Source: Candidatus Uhrbacteria bacterium (GTDB lineage: Bacteria; Patescibacteriota; Patescibacteriia; UBA9934; GWF2-40-263). From it: a stretch of 64,000 nucleotides of DNA. The DNA is taken from positions 180,472-244,471 of the forward strand of contig JACRJU010000013.1 in NCBI GenBank assembly GCA_016219925.1, written 5' to 3'. Shown here piece by piece: positions 2,685 to 35,362 of this stretch; position 1 is the stretch's first letter; every line of letters begins with the position of its first letter. Both the position numbers and the translations under genes were made by a program. The notes beneath the pieces were generated by a model. It was not told the origin of the DNA. It made no database searches and worked only from the letters and a program-made list of their open reading frames with translations.

Positions 2685-2749
2685 GGTTTATGCCATGTCT
2701 TTGGGCCAGCGGACTCCTCGCCGCTGTTCCCTCCGACATGGCATAAACC
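2685..2749 (+). repeat. Structured hairpin repeat, family 2, copy A
   Basis: A 17-bp stem (GGTTTATGCCATGTC / GACATGGCATAAACC) closes the conserved loop TTTGGGCCAGCGGACTCCTCGCCGCTGTTCCCTCC. Confidence 0.8.
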
Positions 2750-2798
2750 GCAAAAAGACGTCTGTACGCTAAAGAGAAAGGATTATTTTGCGAACTCT

Positions 2799-2830
2799 TC
2801 GCCGCTGTTCCCTCCGACAGGGCATCAACC
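2799..2830 (+). repeat. Partial (3' half) copy of the family-2 hairpin repeat
   Basis: cgccgctgttccctccgacagggcatcaacc matches the 3' loop/stem half of copy A. Confidence 0.6.
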
Positions 2831-2850
2831 GAAAAAGATTGACAGCATAT

Positions 2851-3750
2851 ATGCTCATCGATACACATTGCCACGTGCATTTTAACGCTTACAAAGACGA
2901 CATGGACGCGGTGATCCGCCGAACCCTTGACAAAGGGGTTTTTATGATCACGGTCGGCACACAAAGAGATACGAGCGCAAACGGATTGAAAGTTGCCGAA
3001 CTCTACGATGGATTGTGGGCAAGCGTTGGCCTGCATCCAAACCATCTCACCCGACAAGAGTTTTGGGATGATGATGAACTTCCGCCGCAGGCGCAAGCAA
3101 CGCCGCTTATCAAAACACGAGCCGAAGTGTTTGATCCCGCCTATTATCTCAAGCTGGCGCAACATCCGAAGTGTGTGGCTATCGGCGAATGCGGCCTGGA
3201 TTATTATCGGATCCCCGAAGGGGTTGATAGAGAAGACGTAAAGCGCGTGCAAGAAGCGGCTGTGCGCGGACAGTTCGATGTGGCCACGCAAGCGAATCTT
3301 CCCGTGATTGTGCATTGCCGCGATGCACACGCGACGCAGGCCGACCTTATTGAAGAGTTTGTGAAAGAGGGAAAACTGGCGCGGCGGGGTGTGGTGCATT
3401 GTTTTACGGGAACGATTGAGGAAGCACAGCGATATTTGAATTTAGGATTTTATATTTCGTTTACGGGAATCATCACCTTTCCTGCGCGAAAAGGAGAAGC
3501 AGATGGTGACGGGTTGAGCGCGCTTCATCGAGTGGTGCGCGAGATGCCGCTTGAGCGTATGCTTATTGAAACGGACGCGCCGTATCTGACGCCAATCCCG
3601 CATCGTGGCGAACGTAACGAACCGTGGTATGTGGAGTTTGTGGCACAGAAGGTTGCGGAGCTCAAAGGGATTTCGTTCGATAAGGTCGCTGAGCAGACAA
3701 CAGAGAATGCGAGGAAATTATTTGGGATAATTGAATCTTTCTTGCAATGA
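2851..3750 (+). CDS. tatD: TatD-family metal-dependent deoxyribonuclease
   Basis: Contains MLIDTHCHVHF, GECGLDYYR, VIVHCRDAH and LIETDAPYLTP signatures. Start taken at the ATG at 2851 rather than the repeat-derived ORF extension. Confidence 0.9.
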   Translation: MLIDTHCHVHFNAYKDDMDAVIRRTLDKGVFMITVGTQRDTSANGLKVAELYDGLWASVGLHPNHLTRQEFWDDDELPPQAQATPLIKTRAEVFDPAYYLKLAQHPKCVAIGECGLDYYRIPEGVDREDVKRVQEAAVRGQFDVATQANLPVIVHCRDAHATQADLIEEFVKEGKLARRGVVHCFTGTIEEAQRYLNLGFYISFTGIITFPARKGEADGDGLSALHRVVREMPLERMLIETDAPYLTPIPHRGERNEPWYVEFVAQKVAELKGISFDKVAEQTTENARKLFGIIESFLQ

Positions 3751-3756
3751 TAGCAA

Positions 3757-3795
3757 AAGAAAAACGCCTGCGAGAGTTTCGCACGGCGTTGGTTG
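3757..3795 (-). terminator. Putative intrinsic terminator for the minus-strand island gene
   Basis: On the minus strand an imperfect GC hairpin (aacgccgtgcgaaactctcgcaggcgtt) is followed by TTTTTCTTTT. Confidence 0.45.
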
Positions 3796-3804
3796 AGGTA
3801 GGGG

Positions 3805-4677
3805 CTACCAGTAGCGCCGACGGAACTCCGTCGCGTCATGGTGGTTCAGGCCCGTGTTGAGGTCGGCGATGAGCAGGCCCATCAGCTGACCGAACAGGAC
3901 CATCTGCGGTCCGTTCTGTCCGCTCTTGAAAGCTTTGACCAGATCGATCGCCCGCGCGAGCTTGACGCGCGCGGCTTCCTTGGCGACGACATCGCCGTTG
4001 CGGAATGCGCGGTGTGCCTCGATGATCGCGTCGCGGTTCGACGGCCAGTTCGAGTCATGGTTCACGATCTCGCGCAGGCCGATCGTGATGGGATCCGACG
4101 CCCGAGCAGGGGGGGTCAGTGGCGGTTCGCGTCGATCCTCATCTCGAGGCTTTCCGTCGCGTCGGTCGTCCCGACGCGGTTGCTCGCTCGTGGGCTGGCG
4201 CTGTCCTGATGGAGCCGTTGCTCCTGGCGCGGTGCGCGGAGCTTGTACCACAGGAGCGCGCGGCGCGCTCTGCGAAGGGGGAAGCAGCACGGTACGCGCC
4301 CCGCCTCCGCTTGGAGCCGCAACTGCCGCCGCAACGAGATCGTCGAAGTTCGTCACACTCGCTGCGGGTTCTTCGACCGCTTCGACCGGGAGAGCTTCTA
4401 CGATCACCGGCTTGGCGACGTCGACGGTGACCTTGGCCTCCAGCTTGGCCGCGTAGGCCGCCAAGAGGACTTTGGCTGAACCGTCCGTCAGGCCTTCAGC
4501 GTAGAAGGTGGGCCTGCGAGTGAACTCGCCGACGTTGTCGATGGTGTTAGGGTTCAGACCCCCAGCCTCGTCGTTGGTGGGCTCGGGGCTGTCCCCGAGG
4601 GCTTCGACAGCCTCCTGCGAGGCCGTCGCGTCAGGGTTGGGCCCGAAGAGGGCCTCAAAGGCTTCGTTTCTGGTCAA
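3805..4677 (-). CDS. Hypothetical protein with a low-complexity Ala/Pro/Glu-rich middle and a conserved C-terminal domain (high-GC island 1)
   Basis: GC3-rich coding frame with a diverse amino-acid composition, while the opposite-strand ORFs are Arg/Ser/Ala junk. The likely start is the TTG at 4677, 6 nt after AGGAGG; the ORF tool's longer start at 4728 lies inside the -10 box. Confidence 0.55.
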   Translation of the reverse strand: MTRNEAFEALFGPNPDATASQEAVEALGDSPEPTNDEAGGLNPNTIDNVGEFTRRPTFYAEGLTDGSAKVLLAAYAAKLEAKVTVDVAKPVIVEALPVEAVEEPAASVTNFDDLVAAAVAAPSGGGARTVLLPPSQSAPRAPVVQAPRTAPGATAPSGQRQPTSEQPRRDDRRDGKPRDEDRREPPLTPPARASDPITIGLREIVNHDSNWPSNRDAIIEAHRAFRNGDVVAKEAARVKLARAIDLVKAFKSGQNGPQMVLFGQLMGLLIADLNTGLNHHDATEFRRRYW

Positions 4678-4718
4678 GGGCCACCTCCTGATTAAGGGTT
4701 GTCCAGTCGAAGGAAGCG

Positions 4719-4797
4719 AATTTATCACAAAAACTCTTATTTGTCAATAAAAAATGACAAGCGAAAGCTTGACATTTTTAGGGAAATCAGCTAATAT
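4719..4797. promoter_or_regulatory. Back-to-back divergent sigma70-like promoters of island 1
   Basis: Plus strand: TTGACA (4769-4774), 17 nt, TAATAT (4792-4797). Minus strand: TTGACA (revcomp of 4742-4747), 17 nt, TAAATT (revcomp of 4719-4724). Confidence 0.55.
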
Positions 4798-4905
4798 CGT
4801 CCCTCACGTTCGTGTCGTTTTCAACGATTCGAACATGGGGAAAGTTTCTCAACCCGCCGCTAAGCGCGGCCAAAACGCCGCGTGAGCGGCAAGGAAGGAG
4901 GCCAG

Positions 4906-6537
4906 ATGGCCACGCAGCAGTCCCAGTCCGATACCGGTGCCTTCGGCACCGACGACGTCATCGAGCGCCTGGGCGTTCGCGTGCTCGAAGAGGGCGAGAG
5001 CCCTGCCTCCGGCACGACCGCCTTGGTGCAGTTCCGGGCCGCCCCGACCCTCAAGGCGATCGGGCGCGACCTCGCCCGCGTCGCGGCCACGACCTCCATG
5101 GGCAACCGGGAGGGCGCCCGCCGCCGGTGGCTGGACCGCATGGTCATGGTCTCCGGCCCGGATGGCAAGCCCTCGGACGTCCCGCTCTTTGTGAGCGTGA
5201 CCTTCACGGGCAAGCTCGTGACGGTCAAGGGCGTTCAGGACGTGGGGGTGAGCGCGGAGATGGAGCTCCCCGGCCTCGGCCGCGTGGAGATCCAGCCGCT
5301 CTTCACCGTCGGGATCGAGTACGTCGCCGTCAAGGAAGGCGTGCTCGTGCCCACGCGCTCCTTCACCGGCGCCCTGTTCGCCCCGAAGAGTGGCAAGGGT
5401 CCCGGCAAGTTCGTGCCCATCGACTTGGCCGACCCCCAGCTCATCGCGCGCTGGAACGGCATCGTCGAGCAGGGCAAGGCGCTCAACACCGACCACGGCA
5501 AGTGGCCGACGATCCCGGTCCTCGAGACCAAGATCGGCCGGCCCGGGCAGATGATCATCCCCTTCGCGCCCCGCTACCAGGTCAAGGAGACCTTCAACGA
5601 GCGCGGGCGTGACGGCAAGGAGCGCCAGAAGTCGATCTGGGTCATCGGGACCCGGTTCGGCAAGAAAGTGATCCTGGAAAGCCGGTCGCAGGCCCCGGCG
5701 GTCATCGACGCCAGCTCGGCAAAGCCGTTCGGCGATCTCGAGTTCGTCGTCCGTGAGGGCGAGAACTCCCTGATCGTCGTCCTGCGCGGCCGGCCCGGGC
5801 AGACGCCCCTGCCGGAGTCCATGGCGACCATCGAGCAGGCGAGCGACGGGGTGGACCCGTTCGCCGTCCTCAATCTGGACGTCATGCGCTACGAGCCCGG
5901 CCGGGCGCACACCTTCGTGGAGCGGTGCATGCAGCTTCCGCTCAACTCCGCCAATCCGCTCTACAAGAGCGCGATCAACCTCGGGCTCATCGTCGCGGGC
6001 CAGTCCACGGCGGTCGTGAGCAACCAGCTCCAGGCGCTGGCTGACGAGGCCCAGCGCAAGGCCAGGGAGTTCTGGGACGCAGCCATGAAGGCGACGTGGG
6101 AGGCCTTCAGGGTCTACACGTTGCCGGAGATCGGCGACTGCCTGCAGGGCAAGCCCCTGGGGCAGGTCATCGACCGGCTCAACCCTGAGGACGCGGCCGC
6201 GGCGTGGATCACCAGCCACGTCGAGGGCGAGTACTCGCACACGAGCCCGTTTCACCGGGTCCTGCGCGAGCGCGTCCTGCGTGCCGTCGCCCGCAAGGCC
6301 GGCTACCGCGACCCGGCCCCCGAAGGCCCCGCGGCCGACGAGCAGGCCAAGCCCGCCAAGTCCGAGGCCCCGCAGAACAGCGGGACCAACGGCGCGACCA
6401 GCCCCGTCGCCGCGGACACCGCCGAGGCCCCCAAGCCGAAGCGGACCCCGCGCAAGCCGACCAAGGGCGCCAAGCCCAAGGCCGCCGCGCGCAAGACCGC
6501 CAAGCCCAAGGGCTCCCAGCCCGCACTGCGGCAGTGA
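4906..6537 (+). CDS. Hypothetical 543-aa protein with a Lys/Pro/Ala-rich basic C-terminal tail (high-GC island 1)
   Basis: AAGGAGG at 4893-4900 precedes the ATG at 4906 by 5 nt, and the frame is very GC3-rich. The tail (PKPKRTPRKPTKGAKPKAAARKTAKPKG) resembles histone H1 / HU-tail repeats. No family was recognised for the body. Confidence 0.6.
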   Translation: MATQQSQSDTGAFGTDDVIERLGVRVLEEGESPASGTTALVQFRAAPTLKAIGRDLARVAATTSMGNREGARRRWLDRMVMVSGPDGKPSDVPLFVSVTFTGKLVTVKGVQDVGVSAEMELPGLGRVEIQPLFTVGIEYVAVKEGVLVPTRSFTGALFAPKSGKGPGKFVPIDLADPQLIARWNGIVEQGKALNTDHGKWPTIPVLETKIGRPGQMIIPFAPRYQVKETFNERGRDGKERQKSIWVIGTRFGKKVILESRSQAPAVIDASSAKPFGDLEFVVREGENSLIVVLRGRPGQTPLPESMATIEQASDGVDPFAVLNLDVMRYEPGRAHTFVERCMQLPLNSANPLYKSAINLGLIVAGQSTAVVSNQLQALADEAQRKAREFWDAAMKATWEAFRVYTLPEIGDCLQGKPLGQVIDRLNPEDAAAAWITSHVEGEYSHTSPFHRVLRERVLRAVARKAGYRDPAPEGPAADEQAKPAKSEAPQNSGTNGATSPVAADTAEAPKPKRTPRKPTKGAKPKAAARKTAKPKGSQPALRQ

Positions 6538-6600
6538 TTCCCTCCGGATCCTGCCGCTCTTTTTTTATTGTAGCGTGATAGATACAGATGACAGATCAGT

Positions 6601-6738
6601 CAGTGGGGGCCCGGCTGGCCATTTCCCCATCCGTGCTCGCAAGCTGCGCGCGGATGGGGACCCCATGGCCGCCTCCCCACTGGCCGTGACAGCTTATCCA
6701 TTCGCAAAGCGACTCTATTGCCCGAGCTTGTCGAGGGC
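6601..6738 (+). repeat. GC-rich extended-hairpin repeat, family 1, copy 1
   Basis: About 90% identical to 13221-13358. It forms nested stems: CCAGTGGGG/CCCCACTGG, GCTGGCCAT/ATGGCCGCC and CCCCATCCG/CGGATGGGG. Confidence 0.8.
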
Positions 6739-6844
6739 TGCTCTTGCAATGCGGCGTAGTCCATGCCTCCTCGACAAAATCAATCATTCATCACCGAACG
6801 AGATGGACAACGTGAAGATGAAAGGAGGAGGAACTATCCGTTGG

Positions 6845-6914
6845 TGCGATAATATGAACACAAGGGAATCCATAGGGTTCCTCCCGTGATTCCCCTGTAT
6901 TCATATCATCGCAC
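6845..6914. other. Nested inverted-repeat element upstream of the atp promoter
   Basis: The outer stem GTGCGATAATATGAA/TTCATATCATCGCAC encloses the inner stem GGGAATC/GATTCCC. Confidence 0.4.
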
Positions 6915-6952
6915 CCCAAGGGGAAGCTGTTCCTTGATATTTTTTATCCGCA

Positions 6953-6981
6953 TTGACCTTTTTCTCTGTGCCGCGTATACT
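6953..6981 (+). promoter_or_regulatory. Putative promoter of the ATP synthase operon
   Basis: TTGACC (6953-6958), 17 nt, TATACT (6976-6981). Confidence 0.5.
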
Positions 6982-7016
6982 TTCCGCGCTTGTTGACCGT
7001 TGCGCACAAGACGCTT

Positions 7017-7262
7017 ATGAGCACCGATGCCCCTTATTACCGACTTGCGATGAAGATTTTCGTAGACTTTACCGGAACCATCGCGATCCCGGTGGTTGTC
7101 GCAGCGCTTGCAGGCAAATGGCTTGATGAGCGTTATGGCACATCGCCGTGGTCTCTCATCGGCTTGTTCGCTCTTGCGCTGATTTTTACGGGCATGACGG
7201 TCGTCAAAAAAGCGTATCGGTATCGGAAAGAATTTGAATCCATTTCACACAACGCTAAGTGA
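7017..7262 (+). CDS. Small two-helix membrane protein, possibly an AtpZ/AtpI-like ATP synthase accessory protein
   Basis: An 81-aa hydrophobic protein immediately upstream of atpB, in the usual AtpI/AtpZ position. Confidence 0.4.
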   Translation: MSTDAPYYRLAMKIFVDFTGTIAIPVVVAALAGKWLDERYGTSPWSLIGLFALALIFTGMTVVKKAYRYRKEFESISHNAK

Positions 7263-7266
7263 TTGT

Positions 7267-8115
7267 ATGAGTTTCGCCATTCCTCCCGTTGCGGCTGAAC
7301 CGGTTCTCTCTATCGGAACATTTCCCATCACGAATACCATGGTGAACGCCTGGATCGCGGTTGTTTTTTTCCTGCTCATTTCTCTTGCGGTTCGTTCTCG
7401 AAAAGCGCGCGTTCCAAAAGGGTTGCAAAATATTGTGGAGTCTGTGGTGGAGTTTCTTTTGCGCGAAGTCGAAAAAGTAACAGGGGATAAAAAGAAAGCT
7501 CGGCAGTTTTTGCCGATCGTCGGCACGATCTTTCTTTTCATCCTCTTTTCTAATTGGATCGGATTGTTTCCGGGAACCGGTTCCATTGGAGTCTGGGGGA
7601 TGGTTCATGGGGAAGTGGAATTGATTCCCTTACTTCGTCCAGCCGCCAGCGATCTGAATCTCACCCTTGCGATCGCTTTGTTTGCGATCATCACCTCACA
7701 CGTCATGGCTTTGTTGTCGATCGGACCGTTAAATCACATCAGCAAATTCATCAACATCCGCGGAGTTCTGCGTTCGTTGCGCAACGGACCGATGGCTGTG
7801 ATCGTAGCGATTATCGAATTGGGTGTGGGCTTTATCGAAATCGTTGGTGAGATTGCCAAAGTGGTCTCGCTCTCGCTTCGGTTGTTTGGAAACATTTTTG
7901 CCGGCGAAGTTTTGATGACGGTTATGCTTGGATTGCTCGCCTATGTCGTGCCGATTCCGTTTATGTTTTTGGAGCTTCTGGTCGGAGCGGTTCAAGCAAC
8001 GGTTTTTGCGATGCTGACGCTTGCGTATTTGGTGGTGGCGACGGAAGATCACGGTGGCCACGAAGAAAATACTCACGGTGGCCACGAAGAAGTTCTCGTT
8101 TCAACTCATCCATAA
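7267..8115 (+). CDS. atpB: F0 ATP synthase subunit a
   Basis: Conserved LSLRLFGNIFAGEVL region with the essential Arg. The C-terminus carries a His-rich tandem repeat. Confidence 0.85.
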   Translation: MSFAIPPVAAEPVLSIGTFPITNTMVNAWIAVVFFLLISLAVRSRKARVPKGLQNIVESVVEFLLREVEKVTGDKKKARQFLPIVGTIFLFILFSNWIGLFPGTGSIGVWGMVHGEVELIPLLRPAASDLNLTLAIALFAIITSHVMALLSIGPLNHISKFINIRGVLRSLRNGPMAVIVAIIELGVGFIEIVGEIAKVVSLSLRLFGNIFAGEVLMTVMLGLLAYVVPIPFMFLELLVGAVQATVFAMLTLAYLVVATEDHGGHEENTHGGHEEVLVSTHP

Positions 8116-8355
<240 letters not shown>

Positions 8356-9395: not shown

Positions 9396-10912
9396 TGTTC
9401 AATCCTATGGCAACAAAAACAGAAATTTTGGACGCTCTCAAAAAATCGCTCGAGCATTTTCACGCGGAAGCAAAGGAAGAGCATGTCGGCACCGTTATCG
9501 CGGTGGGCGATGGCACGGCGCGTATGACCGGGCTTTCCCAAGCACGCGCTTCCGAAATGCTTGAATTTCCCGGAGGCATCTACGGCGTCGCTTTGAACCT
9601 GGAGCAAGACGGGGTTGGCGCCGTTATTTTGGGTGATGCTTCTGCCATCAAAGAAGGCGACACAGTGAAATCAACCGGCCGTATTCTTTCCATTCCCGTT
9701 TCTGATGCGGTGCTCGGTCGTGTGCTTGATCCTTTGGGAAATCCGATTGACGGCAAAGGAAAATTAACGGCAACGAAGTTTTATCCGATTGAAAAAATCG
9801 CGCCGGGCGTGATGACGCGTAAAGGCGTTGGCGTGCCTTTGCAAACAGGAATTAAGGCGATTGATTCGATGATTCCGATCGGCCGCGGCCAGCGCGAGCT
9901 CATCATCGGGGATCGTCAAACCGGTAAGACCGCTATCGCCATTGATACGATCATCAACCAAAAAGGATTGGGGGTGAAATGTATTTATATTGCGGTCGGA
10001 CAAAAAGAATCGAAGATTGCGAAGATCGTCGCGCGCCTCGAGGAGTCCGGTGCTATGGAATACACCACGGTGGTGGTGGCTGGCGCGTCCGATCCAGCTT
10101 CGCTTTCTTACATCGCGCCATTTGCCGGATGCACCATTGGAGAATATTTCATGGAAAAAGGAGAAGATGCACTTGTCATTTACGACGATTTGTCCAAACA
10201 GGCCTGGGCCTACCGCGAAATTTCGCTTTTGCTTCGCCGCCCGCCGGGTCGCGAAGCCTATCCCGGCGATGTGTTTTATCTTCACTCACGATTGCTTGAG
10301 CGCGCGGCTCGTTTGAATGAAGAGAACGGCGGCGGATCGCTCACAGCGCTTCCCATCATTGAAACGCAAGCCGGCGATGTCTCGGCCTACATTCCAACAA
10401 ATGTCATTTCTATTACCGATGGACAGATTTATCTGGAATCCGATTTGTTTTATCGCGGGATTCGTCCGGCGCTCAATGTGGGATTGTCTGTTTCCCGCGT
10501 CGGTTCTTCGGCGCAAACCAAGGCCATGAAAAAAGTGGCGGGAAAATTACGCTTGGATCTCGCGCAATTCCGCGAACTCGAAGCGTTTGCCCAGTTCGCA
10601 ACCGATCTTGATCCTCAAACGCGCGCGCAGATCGAGCGCGGCCGTCGCACCACCGAACTGCTCAAACAGCCTCAATATCAACCGATGCCATTTGAACAAC
10701 AGGTCACGGTGCTGTTTGCGGTAACTCAAGGGTTGATCGATCAGATTCCTGTTGACCAAATGACCGTTTGGGAAAAAGCGTTCCACGCGTATATGCTTTC
10801 TTCAGGGGCTGAAACGCTTAAGAAATTGCGGGAAGAGAAGGAAATCACCGATGAGATTGAGGTCTTGTTGAAAAAGGATATTGCGAATTTTAACGAAACA
10901 TTCACTTCATAA
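9395..10912 (+). CDS. atpA: F1 ATP synthase alpha subunit
   Basis: Walker A GDRQTGKT and strong global similarity to AtpA. TAATG overlaps the atpH stop. Confidence 0.9.
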
Positions 10913-13220: not shown

Positions 13221-13358
13221 CAGTGGGGGCCCGGCTGGCCATTTTCCCATCCGTGCTCGCAAGCTGCGCGCGGATGGGTGCCCCATGGCCGCCTCCCCAC
13301 TGGCCGTGACGGCTTATTCATTCGCAATGCGACTTTATTGCCTGAGCCTGTCGAAGGC
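13221..13358 (+). repeat. GC-rich extended-hairpin repeat, family 1, copy 2
   Basis: About 90% identical to 6601-6738, with the same orientation and nested stems. Confidence 0.8.
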
Positions 13359-13470
13359 AATGACGATCCCTCCGACACGGTTTTTGTCAGAACCACTGGT
13401 CTCGCAGTTTCTCCTTTCGTTTCTCTTTATCCCCCGAGCTTGTCGAGGGGGGTGCACGTAGCATCTGAAA

Positions 13471-13541
13471 GCGATTTGTAACCATGTCGGAGGGAACGAC
13501 GGCGATGAGTCCGTCGGCCCGGAGACATGGTTACAAATCGC
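13471..13541 (-). repeat. Structured hairpin repeat, family 2, copy C (inverted orientation)
   Basis: An 18-bp stem (GCGATTTGTAACCATGTC / GACATGGTTACAAATCGC) closes a loop that is the reverse complement of the conserved loop. Confidence 0.8.
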
Positions 13542-13555
13542 TTCCCATTCAACAT

Positions 13556-14837: not shown

Positions 14838-14875
14838 TTTACACCGTTCGTTCAACCCACAACCACAGGTGAGCC

Positions 14876-15490
14876 ATGGGACGATTGTCCACGTTTGACA
14901 GGGAAGTGATTGGCATCCTTCGAGAGGAGAACGTCCTGCAAGACGGCGAAGCGCACCTGCTTGAGTCGCCCACGGGTGTGATCGTGGTGGCCTGTTCGGA
15001 CGGCGACCAGATGCCGGACATCTTCGACCACTATCGGGACCTCGCGCGGGCGGGGGAATGGCCCGTGCGCCCGCACATGCTCTGCCTGCACGGTGGAGCC
15101 ATGCTGATCGCGCCCGACTGCCCGCTCTACCGCGCGTTCCACGTGGACGAACTGCTCCTTCAGCACATCCGCGAGGCCGAGGGACTCGACCTCAAGGGGA
15201 TCGGCACGGTCGTGCTCTACGTGCATGCCCCCTGTGGCGCGGCCGGCTTGGCGAACCTGACGGTCGTCAACCAGCTCGACATGCTCATGCGCGCCAAGGC
15301 TCGCGTCAAGGCGATCGATATGACCAATAGGGTCATCTGTTTCGTCCACGTCGACTACGGCAACGAGGGCAACGGAAGCCATAGACGTCGCACGTACTTC
15401 ATGTCCGCGGCGGGCTGGGCCGAGTTCTGGAACCGTCAGGGCCACGAGTTGTGGGGGCGCTTACTAGGTTTTCCTGTGTCGGCGAGTTGA
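14876..15490 (+). CDS. Hypothetical protein, paralog family member C (high-GC island 2)
   Basis: Motifs VVACSDGD, HGGAMLIAPD and HAPCGAAGL. GC3-rich frame. Confidence 0.6.
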   Translation: MGRLSTFDREVIGILREENVLQDGEAHLLESPTGVIVVACSDGDQMPDIFDHYRDLARAGEWPVRPHMLCLHGGAMLIAPDCPLYRAFHVDELLLQHIREAEGLDLKGIGTVVLYVHAPCGAAGLANLTVVNQLDMLMRAKARVKAIDMTNRVICFVHVDYGNEGNGSHRRRTYFMSAAGWAEFWNRQGHELWGRLLGFPVSAS

Positions 15491-15504
15491 ACAAACACCT
15501 CCTG

Positions 15505-15531
15505 ACCGTTCCTGCGAAGGGCGGTTTTTTT
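15505..15531 (+). terminator. Putative terminator between the island-2 paralogs
   Basis: Imperfect GC hairpin ccgttcctgcgaagggcgg followed by T7. Confidence 0.4.
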
Positions 15532-15619
15532 ATATCATCCAGATGTCATCCCAAGCGAGTTTGAAGAGAGCCGAAGGATTTTTCTAAATGGCTGAAAAAG
15601 AGTTATCAGCCCATCGGGA

Positions 15620-15648
15620 TTGACAAGATTGTGTAAAGTGCGTAAACT
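15620..15648 (+). promoter_or_regulatory. Promoter of island-2 gene D
   Basis: TTGACA, 17 nt, TAAACT, then AGGAGG 6 nt before the ATG at 15694. Confidence 0.5.
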
Positions 15649-15693
15649 CGTCGAGAGCTGTGCACCAACCGCACAGTCTAACGGAGGAGAATC

Positions 15694-16230
15694 ATGACCT
15701 TGCAAGATCTCGTGTCTCGTGGTGTGCTCGTGCCTCGGACGGTGCGCGAGAAGAACACCAAGCCGGTCGTCGTCGTCTGCGACAGCGAGACGGTCATCGA
15801 GGGGCTGTGCGACAAGCGCGTTTCTCGGCGCGTGATCGCGAACGTCGCCGGGGTGCTCGTCGGCACCCCCGAGAGCGATCTCCAGTCCGAGATCGGCGTC
15901 GATCCGGACAAGGTTCTGTACGAACCTCTCCAGATTGCCTTCTCCAACGGGCACCGGTACATCCTGCTGGTCGTAAACCCGGACGCGGTCTGGGGGATCA
16001 TGAGTGAGATGACCAACGTCGAGCTCATTGACCACATGATGCAGGTCGCTCGCGAGATCCGGGAGCGGATGCCCCACTTCGAACTCGACTGCGTCGTCGT
16101 CAAGGGAACGAACTACGGGGAGGTCTACACGGTCAACCCCGAGGCTTGGACGCGGTTCTACGCGACGTACGAGACGCGCGTGCTCGGTCGCCAGGATGAC
16201 GGGCTGGAGCTCGTCCCCGCCACCGTCTGA
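15694..16230 (+). CDS. Hypothetical protein, paralog family member D with degenerate His/Cys motif (high-GC island 2)
   Basis: Aligns with gene C (VVVVCDSE, VAGVLVGTPE, YILLVVNPDAVWG, CVVVKGTNYGE) but lacks the HxxC pair. Confidence 0.6.
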   Translation: MTLQDLVSRGVLVPRTVREKNTKPVVVVCDSETVIEGLCDKRVSRRVIANVAGVLVGTPESDLQSEIGVDPDKVLYEPLQIAFSNGHRYILLVVNPDAVWGIMSEMTNVELIDHMMQVAREIRERMPHFELDCVVVKGTNYGEVYTVNPEAWTRFYATYETRVLGRQDDGLELVPATV

Positions 16231-16344
16231 CGCCTCGCGTCTTCACTCATGGCACCTTCGCGACTTCTTCTACTGCACCCGTCGTCCTCCGGGTGCCTTT
16301 TTTATATTTTTTTTAATAGTCTCGCCAGCTAATCATTCATGAAA

Positions 16345-16415
16345 CAGATTTGTAACCATGTCTCTGGGCCAACGGACTCATCGCCGTTGTTCCCTCCGAC
16401 ATGGTTACAAATCTG
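16345..16415 (+). repeat. Structured hairpin repeat, family 2, copy D
   Basis: An 18-bp stem (CAGATTTGTAACCATGTC / GACATGGTTACAAATCTG) closes the conserved loop. It sits between convergent genes. Confidence 0.8.
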
Positions 16416-16437
16416 TTTTATAAAAAAACATCCATTC

Positions 16438-16980
16438 TCACGGATGCAGAATGCGGATGCGCAGACGGATGTGACTGCGCTTGGGGTTGCCGATGTAGAT
16501 CGAGTCGTAGTCCTGGAGCTCGACGTACACGTCACGCATCAGCGGCCGGGCCTTGGGTGCGCCGGTGCGCCGATGATACGTCGTGTGGCGGTCGGACATC
16601 GTACGCAGGCAAGGTTTGTCGTCCCGGCGTTCGATCACGGCCTGGATGCGCGAGAGCGTACGCTCTGCGTTCAGGCCAACCAGGAGCGGGAGCAGATCGA
16701 CTTCTGGCACGATGGGAGGAACGGTGGTGTCGTCCTTGCGACCGATGCGAAGAGGCGGGTCTCCCGCCGATTCCAGATCGAAGGTAAACGAGATCGGCAC
16801 ATCGCCTGCAACCAGCTCTCGATCACCCACCTGTTCAACGATGATCTCCATGGTGGCAACGGGCTGTTGCACAGCGACGATCGCCTTTGGTTGCGACGGG
16901 GGGGACAGGGGACTCCCATCCTGATCGCACACGAGCGTGCCGTTCTTGAAGTGCTTGCCGCATGAGGGGCAGGTGATCAT
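16438..16980 (-). CDS. Zinc-ribbon plus FHA-domain protein (high-GC island 3)
   Basis: N-terminal CPSCGKHF...C ribbon. FHA signatures: IGRKDD, LSRIQAVIERR, the HTTYHRRTG beta-turn and L.DYDSIYIGN. The ATG overlaps the vWA stop (ATGA). Confidence 0.6.
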   Translation of the reverse strand: MITCPSCGKHFKNGTLVCDQDGSPLSPPSQPKAIVAVQQPVATMEIIVEQVGDRELVAGDVPISFTFDLESAGDPPLRIGRKDDTTVPPIVPEVDLLPLLVGLNAERTLSRIQAVIERRDDKPCLRTMSDRHTTYHRRTGAPKARPLMRDVYVELQDYDSIYIGNPKRSHIRLRIRILHP

Positions 16981-18254
16981 GGCTTCTCCTCATCCGTTCC
17001 ACTGTGTTGCGGAAAGTGCATGGTGTGAACCACGCTGACCGAACCGCCCGTGAGCGTTTCGCTTCCGCGATCGACTGCGGCGCGGCTGTGCGTTCCACGC
17101 GCGAGGTGATCGACCATGGTGCGCAAGGCAGTGGCTGTGGCATGGTCGCCGGCACGTTCGTAGACGACCGAGGCGCCATTGAGGTCGCCGCGATCAGCCA
17201 TCTCCGCCCCGGCCATGTGTTGGGCGACCCTGATCACTTCTGGGTCGGGTTCGGTCTGTGCGGCCTCGTCCCACGTGAACGTTGCGTCGACAGAGAGGTC
17301 GCAGGTGAACGAATTGCCGCTCGAACCGGCTTCCGTGCCGGCAAGCGACAGCTTCAGGATTGGGTGAGTTCCGGGTTCCGGTGTCCCGACCTCGATCTCG
17401 AAGTAGTACTGCTGACCCCGCGCGCGATCGAGCGCGCCCGACGCATCGGTAAACGCGCCGTCTTGGCCGACGTTGAGCGGGCGCTGCTGGGGCATGAAGC
17501 GGGCCGCACGGATGAGGCTCGTCCCTTGCGAGATCTGTCCGGAGACGACCAGTCCTCGGACTCCGACCCCGCGCAGGAAGCCGACCTCGGAGCGGAGGTG
17601 ATCGAGCAGTTCGTCTGCTTGCATCACATGCTTGAGGAACGACCCGTTGCCGGCGCGAACCGCGAGTTGCTGCAGCAGGGCGAAGTTGTAGTCACCGCCG
17701 GTGCCGTAGACGAGCATCGGCAAGCCGTAGTCGCGCGCCCGATCGGCGCTCTTGACCAGTTGCTGGTGGTCTTGGTGGACGTTCACCGTGCTCTCGCCGT
17801 CGGTGAACAGGACGAGCCGCGTCTCGAAGCGGATATCGGGGCGTGTGATGGCTTCCTCGACGCCGCCGGAGATGAACGTGTCGCCTTCCGCCTTGATGGC
17901 CGCGATGAGAGCGCGCGCGTGACTGTGAACCTTATAGTCCATGTTCGTGCTGGGCAGATCAAGATCGTGGAAGTCGGCGAACGTGATGAGCGCGAGCCGA
18001 TCCTTCGGACCAAGATCGCCGATCAGCTCACGCAGGGCAAGCCGCACGGCCTCGATCTTTCTGCCCTCCATTGAGCCGGAACGGTCGATGACCAGGCGCA
18101 GGTCGATCGGCGGAGCGTTGGGGTTGGTGGTCGCGGGACGAATGTCCACGAACACCGGCACGACAACAGGACCCCCGTCGATGTGTGTGACTTCACGACC
18201 CAGATGCACGGTTACATGCACGTGAGTCAACTTGTGAACGAGCTGGGTACCCAT
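16977..18254 (-). CDS. von Willebrand factor A (vWA) domain protein with MIDAS motif (high-GC island 3)
   Basis: LVIDRSGSMEG (DxSxS), LITFADF and LFTDGES. GGAGG lies 5 nt before the ATG. The minus-strand promoter is TTGACA, 17 nt, TAACGT. Confidence 0.7.
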   Translation of the reverse strand: MGTQLVHKLTHVHVTVHLGREVTHIDGGPVVVPVFVDIRPATTNPNAPPIDLRLVIDRSGSMEGRKIEAVRLALRELIGDLGPKDRLALITFADFHDLDLPSTNMDYKVHSHARALIAAIKAEGDTFISGGVEEAITRPDIRFETRLVLFTDGESTVNVHQDHQQLVKSADRARDYGLPMLVYGTGGDYNFALLQQLAVRAGNGSFLKHVMQADELLDHLRSEVGFLRGVGVRGLVVSGQISQGTSLIRAARFMPQQRPLNVGQDGAFTDASGALDRARGQQYYFEIEVGTPEPGTHPILKLSLAGTEAGSSGNSFTCDLSVDATFTWDEAAQTEPDPEVIRVAQHMAGAEMADRGDLNGASVVYERAGDHATATALRTMVDHLARGTHSRAAVDRGSETLTGGSVSVVHTMHFPQHSGTDEEKP

Positions 18255-29222: not shown

Positions 29223-29246
29223 AGGGGATGAGGCGGTATTGTTTTG

Positions 29247-29358
29247 CGATTTGTGCCATGTCTCTGGGCCAGCGCCTGCCCGCCATCCGGCCTGAGCCGT
29301 CAGGCGATGGCAGGCGGGGACTCCTCGCCGCTGTTCCCTCCGACATGGCACAAATCGC
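29247..29358 (+). repeat. Structured hairpin repeat, family 2, copy E (expanded loop)
   Basis: A 17-bp stem (GCGATTTGTGCCATGTC / GACATGGCACAAATCGC). The conserved loop carries an insert of about 40 nt. Confidence 0.75.
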
Positions 29359-29416
29359 AACAGGTTCCTTCGCTTCTATTGGTCGCTCATGATGGCGAAG
29401 CAAGTATCAGATATGT

Positions 29417-29444: not shown

Positions 29445-29476
29445 CAAATACCGCATTTGTGGTATGATAAACATCT

Positions 29477-30574: not shown

Positions 30575-30586
30575 CGTGACATAACT

Positions 30587-31042
30587 ATGTCGATGTATAT
30601 CTCACAAGGCGGTCTGGATGAATTGAAACGCGAGTATCAAAAACGCGTAAAAATTACGCGCAGAGAAATTGCGGATGCGATTACTTCAGCGAAAGAACAG
30701 GGAGACTTGTCCGAAAATTTTGAATACCAAGATGCGAAGGAGCAACAAGCGCTCAATGAAGCGCGTATCGCCCAACTTGAAGGGATGATCCATGATGCGG
30801 TCATTGTTGAACAGACTCAAGGAAATGATACGATTGAACTTGGATGTACCTTTCTGGCTCTTGTTAATGGTGCAGAGAAGACTTTTTCTCTTGTTGGTTC
30901 AACGGAGGCCGATCCGATCGCTGGAAAAATCAGCAACGAATCGCCATTGGGTCGTGCCCTTTATGGCCACGGGCCTGGCGAGATGGTCGATGTTCAGACG
31001 CCAAATGGTTCCATTCAGTATAAAATTATTTCCATTACATAG
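30587..31042 (+). CDS. greA: Transcription elongation factor GreA
   Basis: A coiled-coil N-terminus with the acidic tip DLSENFEY, plus a C-terminal FKBP-like domain. Confidence 0.9.
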   Translation: MSMYISQGGLDELKREYQKRVKITRREIADAITSAKEQGDLSENFEYQDAKEQQALNEARIAQLEGMIHDAVIVEQTQGNDTIELGCTFLALVNGAEKTFSLVGSTEADPIAGKISNESPLGRALYGHGPGEMVDVQTPNGSIQYKIISIT

Positions 31043-31045
31043 CGT

Positions 31046-32524
31046 ATGCCAGATGAATCTGCTTCGCGCCTCGAACGTCTTGAGCGTTTACAAGCCGCGA
31101 GTGTTGACCCGTATCCATCAACGACTCAACGAACGCATACCCTTCTGCAAGTACGAGAGCACTTTGAGGTTCTTGAGAAATCAGCCGAGCGTATGACTAT
31201 TGTCGGTCGCATCCGACTCATTCGCACACATGGTGGACTGACATTTCTTCAGATTCAAGATATCTCAGGCGTAATGCAGTTAGCTCTCAAGCGTGATGTT
31301 TTGGGTGAACAAGCCTATCATTTTTTTCATGAAACCATCGATCTGGGAGATTTTTTGCAATGTACAGGAACGGTTTTTCTGACAAAGAAGGGGGAACAGA
31401 CGCTTCTCGTCGATCAGTATGTTTTGCTTGCGAAAGCTCTGGAGCCTTTACCAGAAAAATGGCATGGTCTGACGGATGTCGAAGCGCGTTATCGTCAACG
31501 TGAACTCGATCTCCTTTCTCATCCGGAGGTCAAAGAGCGATTTTTGAAACGATCAAAACTGATCTCATCCATTCGTTCGTATTTGGATAATCATGGGTTC
31601 ATTGAAGTTGAAACACCGATTTTGCAGCCTATCCCCGGAGGCGCAAGTGCCCGTCCGTTTGTCACGCACCACAATGCGCTCGATGCGGATTTGTATTTGC
31701 GCATCGCCCCCGAACTGTATTTGAAACGCTTGTTGGTTGGAGGATTTGAAAAGATTTACGAGATTGGAAAAGTGTTCCGTAATGAAGGAATTGACTACGC
31801 TCATAATCCTGAATTCACGATGTTGGAGTGCTACTGGTCCTATGTGTCGGGCCGTGATAACTACATTGATTTTTTGGAGGATTTTTTGCGCACGATTATG
31901 CGAGCGACCATTGGGTCCTTGCGCGTGCCGTACGGGGAAGGGGAGATCGATTTTTCGGGTATGTGGCCGCGTAAAACTTTTCGTGAAGCGATTCTTGAAA
32001 GCTGTCAAATCGACATCGATGATTATCTAGATGAGAATGCTCTAAAAGCCGAAGTCAAAAAGAAAAAGCTCGATGTGGATTTTTCCGAATGTGTTGGGAT
32101 CGGCGAGTGTTACGATCAACTCTATAAAAAAACCGCGCGGGAAAAACTGGTTGAGCCGGTTTGGGTGTTTGATTACCCCCTCGAACTCAAGCCTCTGACG
32201 AAAGCCAGTCCGGATGATCCAAGCAAAAGCGCTTCCGTGCAGTTGGTGGTTCACGGCATGGAGGTTGTCAACGCGTACTATCACGAATTGAACGATCCTA
32301 TCGATCAACGTAAACGGTTTTTGGCTCAAGAAGCTCTGCGCGAGCGCGGGAGTCAAGATGCGCAATATGTTGATGAAGACTTTTTGCGTGCGCTTGAACA
32401 CGGCATGCCACCCACAAGCGGCATGGGGCTTGGGATTGATCGTTTTGTCGCTTTTTTGACCGGGGCCCCAAACTTGAAGGAAGTGATTTTGTTCCCGACC
32501 CTTCGTCCGAAGGGAGATTTGTAA
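31046..32524 (+). CDS. lysS: Lysyl-tRNA synthetase (class II)
   Basis: OB-fold N-terminus. Class II motifs: LRIAPELYLKRL, FRNEG and GLGIDR. Confidence 0.9.
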   Translation: MPDESASRLERLERLQAASVDPYPSTTQRTHTLLQVREHFEVLEKSAERMTIVGRIRLIRTHGGLTFLQIQDISGVMQLALKRDVLGEQAYHFFHETIDLGDFLQCTGTVFLTKKGEQTLLVDQYVLLAKALEPLPEKWHGLTDVEARYRQRELDLLSHPEVKERFLKRSKLISSIRSYLDNHGFIEVETPILQPIPGGASARPFVTHHNALDADLYLRIAPELYLKRLLVGGFEKIYEIGKVFRNEGIDYAHNPEFTMLECYWSYVSGRDNYIDFLEDFLRTIMRATIGSLRVPYGEGEIDFSGMWPRKTFREAILESCQIDIDDYLDENALKAEVKKKKLDVDFSECVGIGECYDQLYKKTAREKLVEPVWVFDYPLELKPLTKASPDDPSKSASVQLVVHGMEVVNAYYHELNDPIDQRKRFLAQEALRERGSQDAQYVDEDFLRALEHGMPPTSGMGLGIDRFVAFLTGAPNLKEVILFPTLRPKGDL

Positions 32525-32526
32525 CT

Positions 32527-32937
32527 ATGGCAAAGCGTGTGCTCGTTTTTGGGACGTTTGATGGATTACATTCTGGGCACCTCTTTTTTTTACGCCTGGC
32601 CCGTTCGCTTGGCGAAGAACTCCTTGTCTCTGTCGCGCGTGATCGTCACGTGCAAGCGTTCAAGCAAAAACAACCGCAACATCCTGAAAACGATCGTCTG
32701 CAAGCCGTTCGTGCGTTGTCCTTTGTGAAGGAGGCTGAACTTTCAGATGAGGTGCCGGGATCTTTTGGCTTGCTTGAAAAATGGCATCCCGATAGGGTTG
32801 TGATTGGACATGATCAAGATGAATTAGAAACAGCGCTTAAAGCGTGGGCTTCAGAACAGTTATCGCCTCCCATTATTCAACGGCTTGAGGATGAGTATGC
32901 ATACGGAACATGTCAAAATTGCTCTTGCCATCATTGA
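32527..32937 (+). CDS. Cytidylyltransferase-like nucleotidyltransferase (HxGH family)
   Basis: FGTFDGLHSGH, a Rossmann nucleotidyltransferase motif, as in the FAD synthetase N-terminus / CTP-glycerol-phosphate cytidylyltransferase. Confidence 0.55.
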   Translation: MAKRVLVFGTFDGLHSGHLFFLRLARSLGEELLVSVARDRHVQAFKQKQPQHPENDRLQAVRALSFVKEAELSDEVPGSFGLLEKWHPDRVVIGHDQDELETALKAWASEQLSPPIIQRLEDEYAYGTCQNCSCHH

Positions 32938-33322
32938 ACGGGACAACCGTATTCTGTTACTGCATCGACGGGATTTGGAACCTCAATGGGACGGAAAGTG
33001 GGAATTTCCTGGTGGAAAAATTGAGGCGGGTGAACAACCGGATCAAGCCGTTCATCGGGAAGTTCAAGAAGAGACTGGTTTGACCATTGATGAGGCCGCG
33101 TTGTTGTGTGTGCATCACCATGATTGGCATCTCGAAGATCGCACGCTTCATGTGGAACTTTATTGTTTTACCGCGAGTAATAGGGAAGGGGATTTTCATC
33201 TTGAACCCGAAAAGTGTTCAGAGGCAAGATGGGTTGATGTTCAGGAGGCGCTTACCTACGATTGTCTTGTCGCAAATCATGATTTGCTTCTGAAGTATGT
33301 ATCGCACCTGGATCGAAATTGA
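32900..33322 (+). CDS. NUDIX hydrolase
   Basis: Nudix box GGKIEAGEQPDQAVHREVQEETGL. Confidence 0.75.
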   Translation, partial: HTEHVKIALAIIERDNRILLLHRRDLEPQWDGKWEFPGGKIEAGEQPDQAVHREVQEETGLTIDEAALLCVHHHDWHLEDRTLHVELYCFTASNREGDFHLEPEKCSEARWVDVQEALTYDCLVANHDLLLKYVSHLDRN

Positions 33323-34427
33323 TGAGCAAGCGCTTGTCACTAACATCAAGACTCTCCGTAGCCTTTCGGAAGGCGCGCGGTTTTGTGCGATCGTGAAGGC
33401 AAATGCCTATGGCCATGGACTAAAGGAAGTCGCGCAGATTGTCTCTCGTGTTGGGGTCACGGCGTTTGGAGTCGATCACATTGACGATGCCATCTTGTTG
33501 CGCGAGAGATTTCCCAGCGCCCTGATTATCGTGCTTGGGTACACTCTGTTTGAACGCTTCGGTGATGCTGTCCATCACAACATTGAACTCACGCTTTACG
33601 ACAAAGAAGGGATTGCCCATGCAGAACGGATGGCCGCATCAGCGGCAACCTTATTGCGCGTACATCTCAAACTGGAAACCGGTACAACACGACAAGGGGT
33701 CATGTCTGAAGATATGTTGGATCTTTTGCTTGAGCTCAAACGATGCTCGCATGTGCAGATTTCAGGGGTCTCAACGCACTTTGCCAATATTGAAGATACT
33801 TCTGACCCGCAATATGCCTCCGAACAGTTTTCTCGATTTCTTGCAGGAATTGAGCAAATTCGAACGGAAGGTTTTGATCCAGAACACATTCATTGCGCCT
33901 GCTCGGCGGCCGTGCTTGTTTATCCGCAAACGCACCAGACGCTCGTGCGGCCTGGCATCGCGTTGTATGGTCTGTGGCCTTCAGCCCTTGTAGAGCAAAC
34001 CGTCCGCAAGCAAAATATTTCTTGTGATCTTCGTCCGGTTCTCCGATGGAAAACACGTATCGCACAGGTGAAATCCGTGAGAACGGGAACTCCGGTCGGC
34101 TACGGACTTACGGTGCGAATGAAACAGCGCAGTCGCGTTGGCATTCTTCCCGTGGGATATTGGGATGGCTATGATCGATCGCTCTCTGGGGTGGGGGAGG
34201 TGCTTGTTTCAGGACAGCGCTGTCCAGTGCTTGGCCGGATTTGCATGAATATGATGATGATTGATGTCTCAAATGTTCCGAAAGTCGAGAAGGAACAGCC
34301 AGTCACGTTGATTGGAGTTGATGGACGCCATGAAATCAGCGCGGCTGAATTAGCTATGAAGGCGCAGACCATTCCGTATGAAATTGTTTCACGGATTAAT
34401 GCGATCTTGCCACGTGTGGTTGTTTAA
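33297..34427 (+). CDS. alr: Alanine racemase
   Basis: PLP lysine motif AIVKANAYGHGL, plus the C-terminal beta domain. Confidence 0.85.
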   Translation: MYRTWIEIDEQALVTNIKTLRSLSEGARFCAIVKANAYGHGLKEVAQIVSRVGVTAFGVDHIDDAILLRERFPSALIIVLGYTLFERFGDAVHHNIELTLYDKEGIAHAERMAASAATLLRVHLKLETGTTRQGVMSEDMLDLLLELKRCSHVQISGVSTHFANIEDTSDPQYASEQFSRFLAGIEQIRTEGFDPEHIHCACSAAVLVYPQTHQTLVRPGIALYGLWPSALVEQTVRKQNISCDLRPVLRWKTRIAQVKSVRTGTPVGYGLTVRMKQRSRVGILPVGYWDGYDRSLSGVGEVLVSGQRCPVLGRICMNMMMIDVSNVPKVEKEQPVTLIGVDGRHEISAAELAMKAQTIPYEIVSRINAILPRVVV

Positions 34428-34430
34428 CTT

Positions 34431-35270
34431 ATGAAGCGTCGTGATTACTTTCGAAGAACGCAACAGAAACAATATATCTCGCGTCCAAAAGCGAATCCCT
34501 ATTTTCGTTCCAAAGATGATCGCAAGCGACTCTTTGGAACGATTGGAGCCATAGGAACTGTTGTTCTGATGGTCGTCCTTCTCATTGTGCTTTTAGCACA
34601 TCCTTTTTTTAACATCACGTCTGTGACCGTTCATGGAGCTGTTCAAACCGATCGAGGAGCTCTCTCAGAGACGATTCGATCTGCTCTGCATGAACGCCCT
34701 CTTCTTTTTTTTCGCCGCCAAAATCGTTTCTTATTTCGATCGACCGCTCTAAGCAAAACACTGAATGATTCTTTTGCCTTTCGTGACGTCCAGATCAAGC
34801 TCCAGAGGAAACAACTCAATATTGCGGTCGTTGAACGCACCTCGCAGCTCATTTGGAAGAGTGCAGAAGAAGCGTATGTGGTTGATCTTGATGGAATTGT
34901 GATTCGTTCTCTTGATGTTGAAGAGTGGGAACATCTCAAAACGCTTTTGCCAATCTTTGTTGATAAGAATGGCACGAAGGTGACCGTTGGCACCTCGATA
35001 TCAAATCGTGTTGAGATCTCGACAATTTTTGCGTTTAATGAAGAACTTCAGAAGCGTCAGATTCACGTGTCGCAAACAGACATTGATCGGCTCTCGGGGA
35101 AATGGATCGGAACTCTGACGCAAGATGGATATCGTATTTTGTTTGATGCCACAAGCGATATTAAGGAACAGGTTGAACGGCTTGATGTGTTGTTGCGGGA
35201 GAAAATTTCTGATCGCTCAAAGCTTGAATACATTGATCTGCGGTTCGGGGATCATGTGTATTATAAGTAA
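34431..35270 (+). CDS. ftsQ: Cell division protein FtsQ/DivIB-like (POTRA domain)
   Basis: Basic cytoplasmic N-terminus, one transmembrane segment, then a POTRA-like region (ITSVTVHGA). Confidence 0.55.
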   Translation: MKRRDYFRRTQQKQYISRPKANPYFRSKDDRKRLFGTIGAIGTVVLMVVLLIVLLAHPFFNITSVTVHGAVQTDRGALSETIRSALHERPLLFFRRQNRFLFRSTALSKTLNDSFAFRDVQIKLQRKQLNIAVVERTSQLIWKSAEEAYVVDLDGIVIRSLDVEEWEHLKTLLPIFVDKNGTKVTVGTSISNRVEISTIFAFNEELQKRQIHVSQTDIDRLSGKWIGTLTQDGYRILFDATSDIKEQVERLDVLLREKISDRSKLEYIDLRFGDHVYYK

Positions 35271-35283
35271 AGGGAAGAGAGTC

Positions 35284-35362
35284 GTTTTGCGGTTTGTGCT
35301 ATGTCTCCGGGCCAGCGGACTCCTCGCGGCTGTTCCCTCCGACATAGCACAAACCGCAAAAC
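35284..35362 (+). repeat. Structured hairpin repeat, family 2, copy F
   Basis: A 22-bp stem (GTTTTGCGGTTTGTGCTATGTC / GACATAGCACAAACCGCAAAAC) closes the conserved loop. Confidence 0.8.

Follow-up and report, generated by a model that had tools for sequence, protein, structure and literature searches.

A family of interspersed single hairpins with free stems and a near-invariant apical domain in Candidatus Uhrbacteria and close relatives

A 64-kb stretch of a Candidatus Uhrbacteria genome (here, the window) contains several copies of a hairpin of about 80 nt. An earlier reading of the letters (the original prediction) had described these copies as a repeat family with a conserved loop and a covarying stem. 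Bacteria of the candidate phyla radiation (CPR), to which Candidatus Uhrbacteria belongs, have tiny, compact genomes, and we know of almost no described repeat or noncoding biology in them. The locus raises the question of what such a hairpin is and what keeps its arms complementary in copies whose stems differ in sequence. The analysis described below tentatively favors a nonautonomous mobile hairpin element that is recognized as a folded single strand, probably single-stranded DNA (ssDNA), by a putative trans-acting protein. The family is well defined and abundant, is restricted to Uhrbacteria and close Parcubacteria relatives, and provides unusually clean evidence of one constrained folded strand.

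RESULTS AND DISCUSSION

A stem of free sequence closes a near-invariant apical domain

The window contains five full copies (c1 to c5), one half copy, and one possible small remnant. One long hairpin (fold z-scores, -8 to -12) was predicted for every full copy on both strands, whether folded as RNA or as DNA. The covarying stems were first described as 17 to 22 bp long; the pairing was as described, and folding gave outer stems of 19 to 25 bp in c1 to c5. From base to tip, the hairpin consists of the outer stem, a 3-by-3 internal loop, GGG/CCC, a 2-by-1 asymmetric loop (AA/G), a 6-bp inner helix, and an 8-nt apical loop. Throughout the family, a stem of 18 to 25 bp of essentially free sequence closes a near-invariant, asymmetric apical domain of 34 to 35 nt. 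Two loop subtypes were found: one has an 8-nt tip (CGA-N-GAGU), and in the other the tip is shortened to 7 nt (CGACAGU) and the third inner pair is a purine-purine mismatch.

In order to evaluate covariation, 32 distinct copies were aligned on the loop (alignment A2). Approximately 27 of the 35 positions in the apical domain were invariant, and the outer ten stem positions had no majority base. Once the structure was imposed, standard pairs filled 89.4% of the cells, compared with 35 to 40% when the 3' partner was slid by 1 to 3 columns. Changes on both sides were detected at 20 of the 22 outer-stem pairs and at 2 of the 9 inner pairs, and none of 500 shuffles reached the observed covariation values. 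Covarying helices, by which structured RNAs are generally recognized, are present. The conserved loop with an internal CAGCGG/CCGCTG stem was correctly identified in the original prediction, but it is more structured than was described, and its inner helix itself covaries. In the window this helix occurs as CAGCGG/CCGCTG, CGACGG/CCGTCG, and CAACGG/CCGTTG, and in a copy from a close relative (L064) it is rewritten, with compensation, as CAAGTG/CACTTG. The compensated stem differences reported between copies were also correct and include a compensated 1-nt indel (GTAACC/GGTTAC versus GTGCC/GGCAC). Derivation of the stems from the target site was considered and rejected; the stem consensus ARGAGCRGTTTGTRCCATGTC recurs in different genomes and at unrelated loci.

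The compensated changes had been attributed to selection on structure. A constraint on structure is supported, but compensated changes alone do not prove selection, because template switching between the arms can yield them in one step. Replication template switching between inverted-repeat arms has been documented to homogenize the arms, give one-step compensated multibase changes, and invert spacers (PMC8794818; PMC8604942). Part of the covariation, as well as the loop flips described below, could therefore arise by this nonselective process. Independent support for a constraint comes from strand-biased wobble pairs.

The constraint lies on one specific strand

The stems are palindromic, so only mismatches distinguish the two strands. 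Transition mismatches were counted in the inner 18 bp of the outer stem in 34 nonredundant copies. On the strand carrying the GGAGGGAAC...GGCCCGGA loop, 31 mismatches were of the G.U(T) type and 8 were of the A.C type (binomial P = 0.0003); counted per element, the bias was 15 versus 5. The conserved unpaired features are also asymmetric, with the 3-by-3 internal loop (GRA opposite the motif RNA) and the AA/G loop made of purines on the GGAGGGAAC strand. The wobble bias indicates that the repeat had originally been written as the complement of the constrained strand, which reads 5'-stem-GRA-GGG-AA-[6-bp covarying helix]-CGA(N)SAGU-[helix]-G-CCC-RNA-stem-3'.

The 31:8 asymmetry rules out a symmetric, duplex-level process as its source and implies that a specific single strand is constrained. 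Either pairing is selected on the GGAGGGAAC strand, or this strand is single stranded at times and gathers C-to-T changes. Both possibilities imply a life stage as one specific single strand.

These results bear on whether the hairpins could be a neutral by-product, that is, palindromes made, extended, and kept perfect by replication template switching alone, with no recognition and no function. Compensated substitutions and indels, stems extending into the flanks, and loops inverted in situ were all seen here and are all explained by template switching (PMC8794818; PMC8604942); several unrelated hairpin families also occupy the same spacers in these genomes. However, template switching is a mutational process rather than a kind of element. 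Three observations are left unexplained by it: that a single asymmetric 35-nt sequence has reached dozens of unrelated loci across several genera, that the tip is near-invariant while the stems diverge freely, and that the wobble pairs are biased to one strand. A purely neutral origin is already disfavored by these data, and we consider it very improbable.

The family is specific to Uhrbacteria and close relatives

Approximately 30 further distinct copies were found in public genomes and metagenomes, almost all in metagenome-assembled genomes (MAGs) of Candidatus Uhrbacteria and related Parcubacteria. A scan of GTDB species representatives detected true copies in JACQXU01, JACPHT01, JAGVFR01, JACRJW01, JAHFIQ01, VGKU01, and CALRGL01; the other matches were chance matches, about as many as expected. 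More copies were recovered from a scan of Joint Genome Institute (JGI) metagenomes, and no copies were found in viral contigs, phage records, or plasmid records. A covariance model, which the original prediction had suggested building, detected a few further copies in the fetched loci. Run over the whole window with filters off, the model returned only c1 to c5, so that all five lie within the first 36 kb. Consistent with the claim that the family is novel, a scan of Rfam gave no matches at the gathering threshold and, at a permissive threshold, only look-alikes of microRNA precursors (31 bits compared to the 48.6 bits required). No description of a hairpin repeat from Uhrbacteria or the CPR was found in the literature searched. 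The hairpins of about 80 nt constitute an undescribed interspersed family restricted to Uhrbacteria and closely related Parcubacteria.

Empty sites, filled sites, and turnover

Tandem units next to c1 provide a comparison of a filled and an empty site. Unit A-B (2451 to 2576) is followed by A'-c1-B' (2580 to 2783), in which c1 is an insertion of about 79 nt exactly between the two parts, with no target duplication. The A parts (2451 to 2547 and 2580 to 2676) are a 97-nt tandem element, 98% identical, that forms a hairpin (about 22 bp; loop of 16 nt) and has no match in Rfam; each is followed by a copy of a 28-nt segment (2549 to 2576 and 2756 to 2783).

Comparison with relatives showed a patchy distribution. 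The spacer orthologous to that of c5 is free of hairpins in L005 and L007. The greA-lysS spacer, 3 nt long in the window, contains hairpins with unrelated stems in the same two genomes. The atpD-atpC spacer is 2 nt long in L065 and 23 nt long in L066, holds unrelated hairpins in L064 and L067, and holds family members in the window and in L039. In four syntenic relatives with AtpC 81 to 87% identical to that of the window, only one copy was found in 73 kb, compared with five in the 64 kb of the window, and two genomes that are about 90% identical have copies of different subfamilies in the same spacer. Decayed copies exist as well. The unrelated atpD-atpC hairpins, a different one in each genome, lie at 9883 to 10000 in L064, 9829 to 10000 in L067, and 6613 to 6635 in L066, with perfect stems of 17, about 12, and 7 bp, respectively. 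Either this position between cistrons favors a hairpin, or hairpin elements in general use the spacer as a landing pad.

Nesting was also observed. The 80-nt hairpin was found at the center of a palindromic element of about 190 nt, which occurs at 4194 to 4405 in L017, 457 to 649 in L043, 1014 to 1217 in L062, and 1101 to 1282 in L032 and has outer arms GATCGTTTGTATCCTCTGTTC and GAACAGAGGATRCAAACGATC. Conversely, copies in L047, L056, and L062 that differ in their stems carry an identical nested 36-nt insertion at TCCGG^GCC, flanked by a duplication of CCGG. A 44-nt insertion in c4 (29275 to 29318) resembles the 36-nt insertion and has a similar start (CCTGCCCGCCATCCGG versus CCTACGCCGGCCATAGCCGG). 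These GC-rich mini-hairpins (about 3061 to 3100 in L047, about 4430 to 4470 in L056 and L062, and 29275 to 29318 in the window) suggest that a second mobile family, made up of tiny hairpins, targets the loops of other hairpins.

The possibility that the hairpins are the ends of a long autonomous element with a gene between them was also considered. No such element was found; among about 45 matches to the right-end pattern, the true ones had a left end within 35 to 80 nt.

Gene orientation and loop flips weaken a cis-acting RNA

The original prediction had left the choice between a structured RNA and a hairpin recognized as ssDNA. A single-strand structure is upheld by the strand asymmetry. In an RNA module, a protein would bind the conserved apical domain, and pairing would be all that the long stem has to provide. 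Such a module could be an independently transcribed small RNA or a cis-acting element in mRNAs, for example a site for RNase III or for processing, a stability element, or a platform for protein binding. Both helices covary strongly, G.U-type mismatches are tolerated on one strand only, and both internal loops consist of purines on the GGAGGGAAC strand, all of which is consistent with an RNA; purine-rich internal loops are typical of RNA-protein sites. Copies lie within operons or a few nucleotides from gene ends. In addition, one orthologous spacer is occupied in four divergent genomes (L029, L033, L038, and L050) whose flanks are 65 to 75% identical.

However, among copies located between co-directional genes, 12 were sense and 11 were antisense, a count that rests on approximate gene calls with several cases checked by hand. 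In the atp operon, the copies in the window and in L064 are sense and the copy in L039 is antisense; in the greA-lysS spacer, the copy in L005 is sense and that in L007 is antisense. The loop itself can be reversed at an orthologous site: L040 and L062 have flanks that are about 90% identical and nearly identical stems, with the loop reverse complemented, and one of the four copies in L029, L033, L038, and L050 is flipped. Inspection of the flanks revealed no consistent T-tract and no conserved promoter or upstream motif. The patchy presence among close relatives, the different subfamily copies at the same site, and the lack of an Rfam match further speak against a conserved RNA. A cis-acting RNA is weakened because gene orientation is random and the loop is flipped at orthologous sites, and we consider a structured RNA of either kind unlikely.

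Two more specific functions were rejected. A canonical intrinsic terminator was dismissed for want of a consistent T-tract on either side of the hairpin. A coding reading of the loop, or a Shine-Dalgarno sequence followed by ATG, was not retained; ATG is present only in c2 and c3.

A possible mobile element read as a folded single strand

The explanation that we prefer, with some reserve, is that of a small nonautonomous mobile DNA that would colonize short intergenic spacers. Its functional form would be one folded single strand carrying GGAGGGAAC, most likely ssDNA, which we infer in preference to RNA. A putative trans-acting protein would read the apical domain and need the stem only to be paired. 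This pairing requirement would keep the arms complementary, probably with help from template switching between the arms at replication, which would also occasionally flip the loop. The transposition chemistry is likewise something that we infer. Mobility is supported by the presence of empty as well as filled sites, the patchy distribution among relatives, the nesting, the loop flips, and placements that are independent of host transcription. It is also supported by the lack of a partner gene encoded in cis: the 91 open reading frames (ORFs) flanking copies in other MAGs were housekeeping genes with no recurrent partner gene among them.

Several observations weigh against such an element. No transposase, RAYT, TnpA, or recombinase gene was found in the 64-kb window or in the 8- to 20-kb flanks available from other genomes. 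No direct repeat indicative of a target-site duplication was found at any of 33 copies or in the filled and empty tandem units, and no conserved flanking target motif was seen. Orientation showed no significant relation to local GC skew (13:24), whereas elements of the IS608 type have a strong lagging-strand bias. An RNA would account equally well for the G.U bias and for the purine-rich 3-by-3 internal loop. Finally, the loop is still conserved in the spacer occupied in L029, L033, L038, and L050, which fits retention in situ by the host as well as it fits repeated insertion.

Such retention might be expected of a host-domesticated DNA structure, a hairpin or cruciform that is bound by a nucleoid, replication, or repair protein or that acts as an insulator, works in either orientation, and has spread secondarily. 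An orientation-independent function fits the observed placements, the apical sequence is highly conserved across genera, and one orthologous site has been retained. The BIME/RIP elements of Escherichia coli, in which palindromic arms accompany a central protein-binding motif, provide a precedent. However, close relatives have nearly no copies, so the lineage as a whole does not require the element. The strand bias of the wobble pairs points to one single strand rather than to a symmetric duplex or cruciform, the copies in the window are confined to 36 of its 64 kb, and decayed copies exist. A domesticated DNA structure therefore seems improbable, less so than a purely neutral origin.

It is possible, if doubtful, that the hairpin is a substrate of a new CPR system that reads a folded single strand. 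In one form, the system would be machinery for ssDNA transposition or recombination that reads the invariant, asymmetric tip and ignores the sequence of the stem; in the other, the hairpin would be a protein-binding RNA module, dispersed and with a biology of its own. The several additional families of rod-like hairpins in these genomes could serve such a system as substrates too. The combination of a free stem and an invariant tip makes the family a direct handle on the putative reader protein through phylogenetic profiling. It is also a natural system for asking whether compensatory change arises from selection or from template switching and, in practical terms, a marker of strain-level genome dynamics in uncultured groundwater bacteria.

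Comparison with known hairpin elements

The proposed mode of recognition can be likened to that of REP/RAYT elements, the ends of IS200/IS605 elements, and integron attC sites, but the hairpin is a member of none of these families. Like REP and REPIN elements and their RAYT partners, it is a short, high-copy, intergenic, nonautonomous palindrome whose dispersed copies fold as hairpins, with no target-site duplication, with decayed copies, and with lineage-specific expansions; the REP/RAYT system relies on folded ssDNA hairpins recognized in trans, as is proposed here. REP and REPIN elements have conserved arms, a 5' GTAG-type tetranucleotide, and a variable spacer, whereas in the present family the arms are free to vary and the invariant, structured part is the apical "spacer"; neither a conserved arm sequence, a GTAG-like tetranucleotide, nor any other flanking motif was found. 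Nor was a RAYT gene found among the approximately 50 ORFs of the window or as a recurrent family in the 91 flanking ORFs elsewhere.

Integron attC sites resemble the proposed element in that structure is conserved over sequence, the stems covary, one strand is recognized as a folded hairpin, and identity is set by unpaired bases. However, attC sites have conserved R and L boxes at the base and a variable tip, the reverse of the present arrangement: the R''/R' core sites (RYYYAAC/GTTRRRY) are absent from the base of the hairpin, which is its most variable part. In addition, attC sites form arrays in the same orientation beside intI, whereas the hairpins are single, dispersed, and found in both orientations between housekeeping genes, with no co-oriented array and no integrase among the window ORFs scanned.

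In size, copy number, intergenic location, noncoding character, nesting, and decay, the family resembles MITEs, Correia/NEMIS, ERIC, and RUP elements, and the Rickettsia RPE. MITEs have sequence-conserved terminal inverted repeats that match those of a parent insertion sequence, and they generate target-site duplications; neither was found here, and the termini differ completely between copies. The IS200/IS605-derived PATEs share with the proposed element ssDNA hairpin recognition, strand specificity, and the lack of a target-site duplication. PATEs differ in having two different subterminal hairpins, left and right, and in inserting 3' of a fixed tetra- or pentanucleotide, whereas the present element is one hairpin only, its flanks share no conserved motif, and its orientation is not significantly biased relative to the replication strand. 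The pattern of conservation, a free stem with an invariant tip, is the inverse of that of REP elements, MITEs, and known small palindromic repeats.

Copies and genes in the window

A degenerate 25-nt pattern, CTCNTCGCSGYTGTTCCCTCCGACA, taken from the 3' portion of the loop and searched with a tolerance of 3 mismatches, had six matches in the window, corresponding to the five full copies and the half copy, compared with an expectation of 0.00 from 100 shuffles. All six had been placed correctly in the original prediction. Strands are given below as the strand that reads GGAGGGAAC.

Copy c1 (2681 to 2753, minus strand; 87.8 bits with the covariance model) lies between cvpA and tatD and has a 19-bp stem with one T.G pair. 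The half copy next to it does exist, but it is longer than the 2799 to 2830 first proposed, extending from about 2784 to 2838 (minus strand). It is a decayed copy: one arm is reduced to its start (TTTTGC), which joins directly onto the 3' portion of the loop and the opposite arm. A segment at 13367 to 13389 (minus strand), comprising the 3' loop end and an arm (TCCCTCCGACAcGG), may be a further remnant of the family, judging from an exact match of 11 to 12 nt to the invariant loop end.

Copy c2 (13467 to 13545, plus strand; 90.4 bits) is in the atp operon and ends 10 nt before the start of atpC. As had been noted, it is inverted relative to the other four. Copy c3 (16339 to 16421, minus strand; 89.9 bits) has a 24-bp stem, lies 16 nt downstream of a minus-strand gene (16438 to 16980), and is 93% complementary to c2 over 72 nt (repeat pair I1). 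Copy c4 (29244 to 29360, minus strand) lies between the divergent znuA and yibE/F genes and scored only 38.2 bits because of the insertion in its apical loop. This insertion had been recognized as GC rich and put at roughly 40 nt; it is 44 nt long and folds as a hairpin itself. Copy c5 (35281 to 35365, minus strand; 92 bits) has a perfect 25-bp stem and lies 11 nt past the stop codon of ftsQ. At the c5 locus, a strain variant in a Logan contig matched the window with 100% identity and was therefore uninformative.

The copies are spaced 3 to 13 kb apart, in mixed orientation, between housekeeping genes. The ORFs of the window with Pfam matches were of this type (the atp operon, aminoacyl-tRNA synthetases, mreBC, the gene for PBP2, ftsQ, clpB, priA, rpoA, and murJ), and the others encode hypothetical proteins. 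The reported lack of TnpB, RAYT, and reverse transcriptase genes was confirmed among the approximately 50 window ORFs scanned, which also included no transposase or integrase. No tRNA or tmRNA genes were found in the window. The AtpC protein encoded there shares 100% identity with an NCBI protein of Candidatus Uhrbacteria.

High-GC islands and other repeats

Several copies had been reported to flank high-GC islands. The islands (3805 to 6537 and 14850 to 18254) have a GC content of 60 to 69% in a genome with 50% GC and encode hypothetical proteins, including a 551-amino-acid protein with a Lys/Ala/Pro-rich tail and a VWA protein. Their homologues are syntenic and equally GC rich in relatives (66 to 70% in L064 and 66 to 67% in L065). 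A link between the hairpins and the islands was rejected as not meaningful, because the island genes are conserved and equally GC rich in relatives without the hairpins. The islands are conserved compositional oddities and not recent insertions tied to the hairpins.

A second repeat family in the window is represented by two GC-rich copies of 138 nt (6601 to 6738 and 13221 to 13358) that are 93% identical and form a long hairpin, CAGTGGGGG...CCCCCACTG. One copy is upstream of the atp operon and the other is in the atpD-atpC spacer beside c2. The motif CCCGAGCTTGTCGAGGG recurs at 6713, 13333, and 13425. The covariance model also matched, weakly (21.6 bits, E = 0.005), an unrelated hairpin of 73 nt at 6843 to 6915 whose stem is about 20 bp long; the loop of this hairpin contains GGGTTCCTCCCG, which faintly resembles GTTCCCTCCG of the family.

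The same Uhrbacteria MAGs also contain a family of rod-like hairpins, each about 185 nt long, that often adjoin 80-nt copies (L001, 5215 to 5401; L008, 5561 to 5747; L039, 974 to 1154; L062, 5995 to 6173; and L047, 997 to 1158). Their stems, about 85 bp long and nearly perfect, covary between copies. A small hairpin, GYGTCGTATAAGRTWYATTGTRCGACRC, is conserved in sequence in three genomes (the window, 35577 to 35604; L007, about 4520 to 4547; and L005). It lies downstream of a gene for a small membrane protein and may be a conserved terminator or regulatory element.

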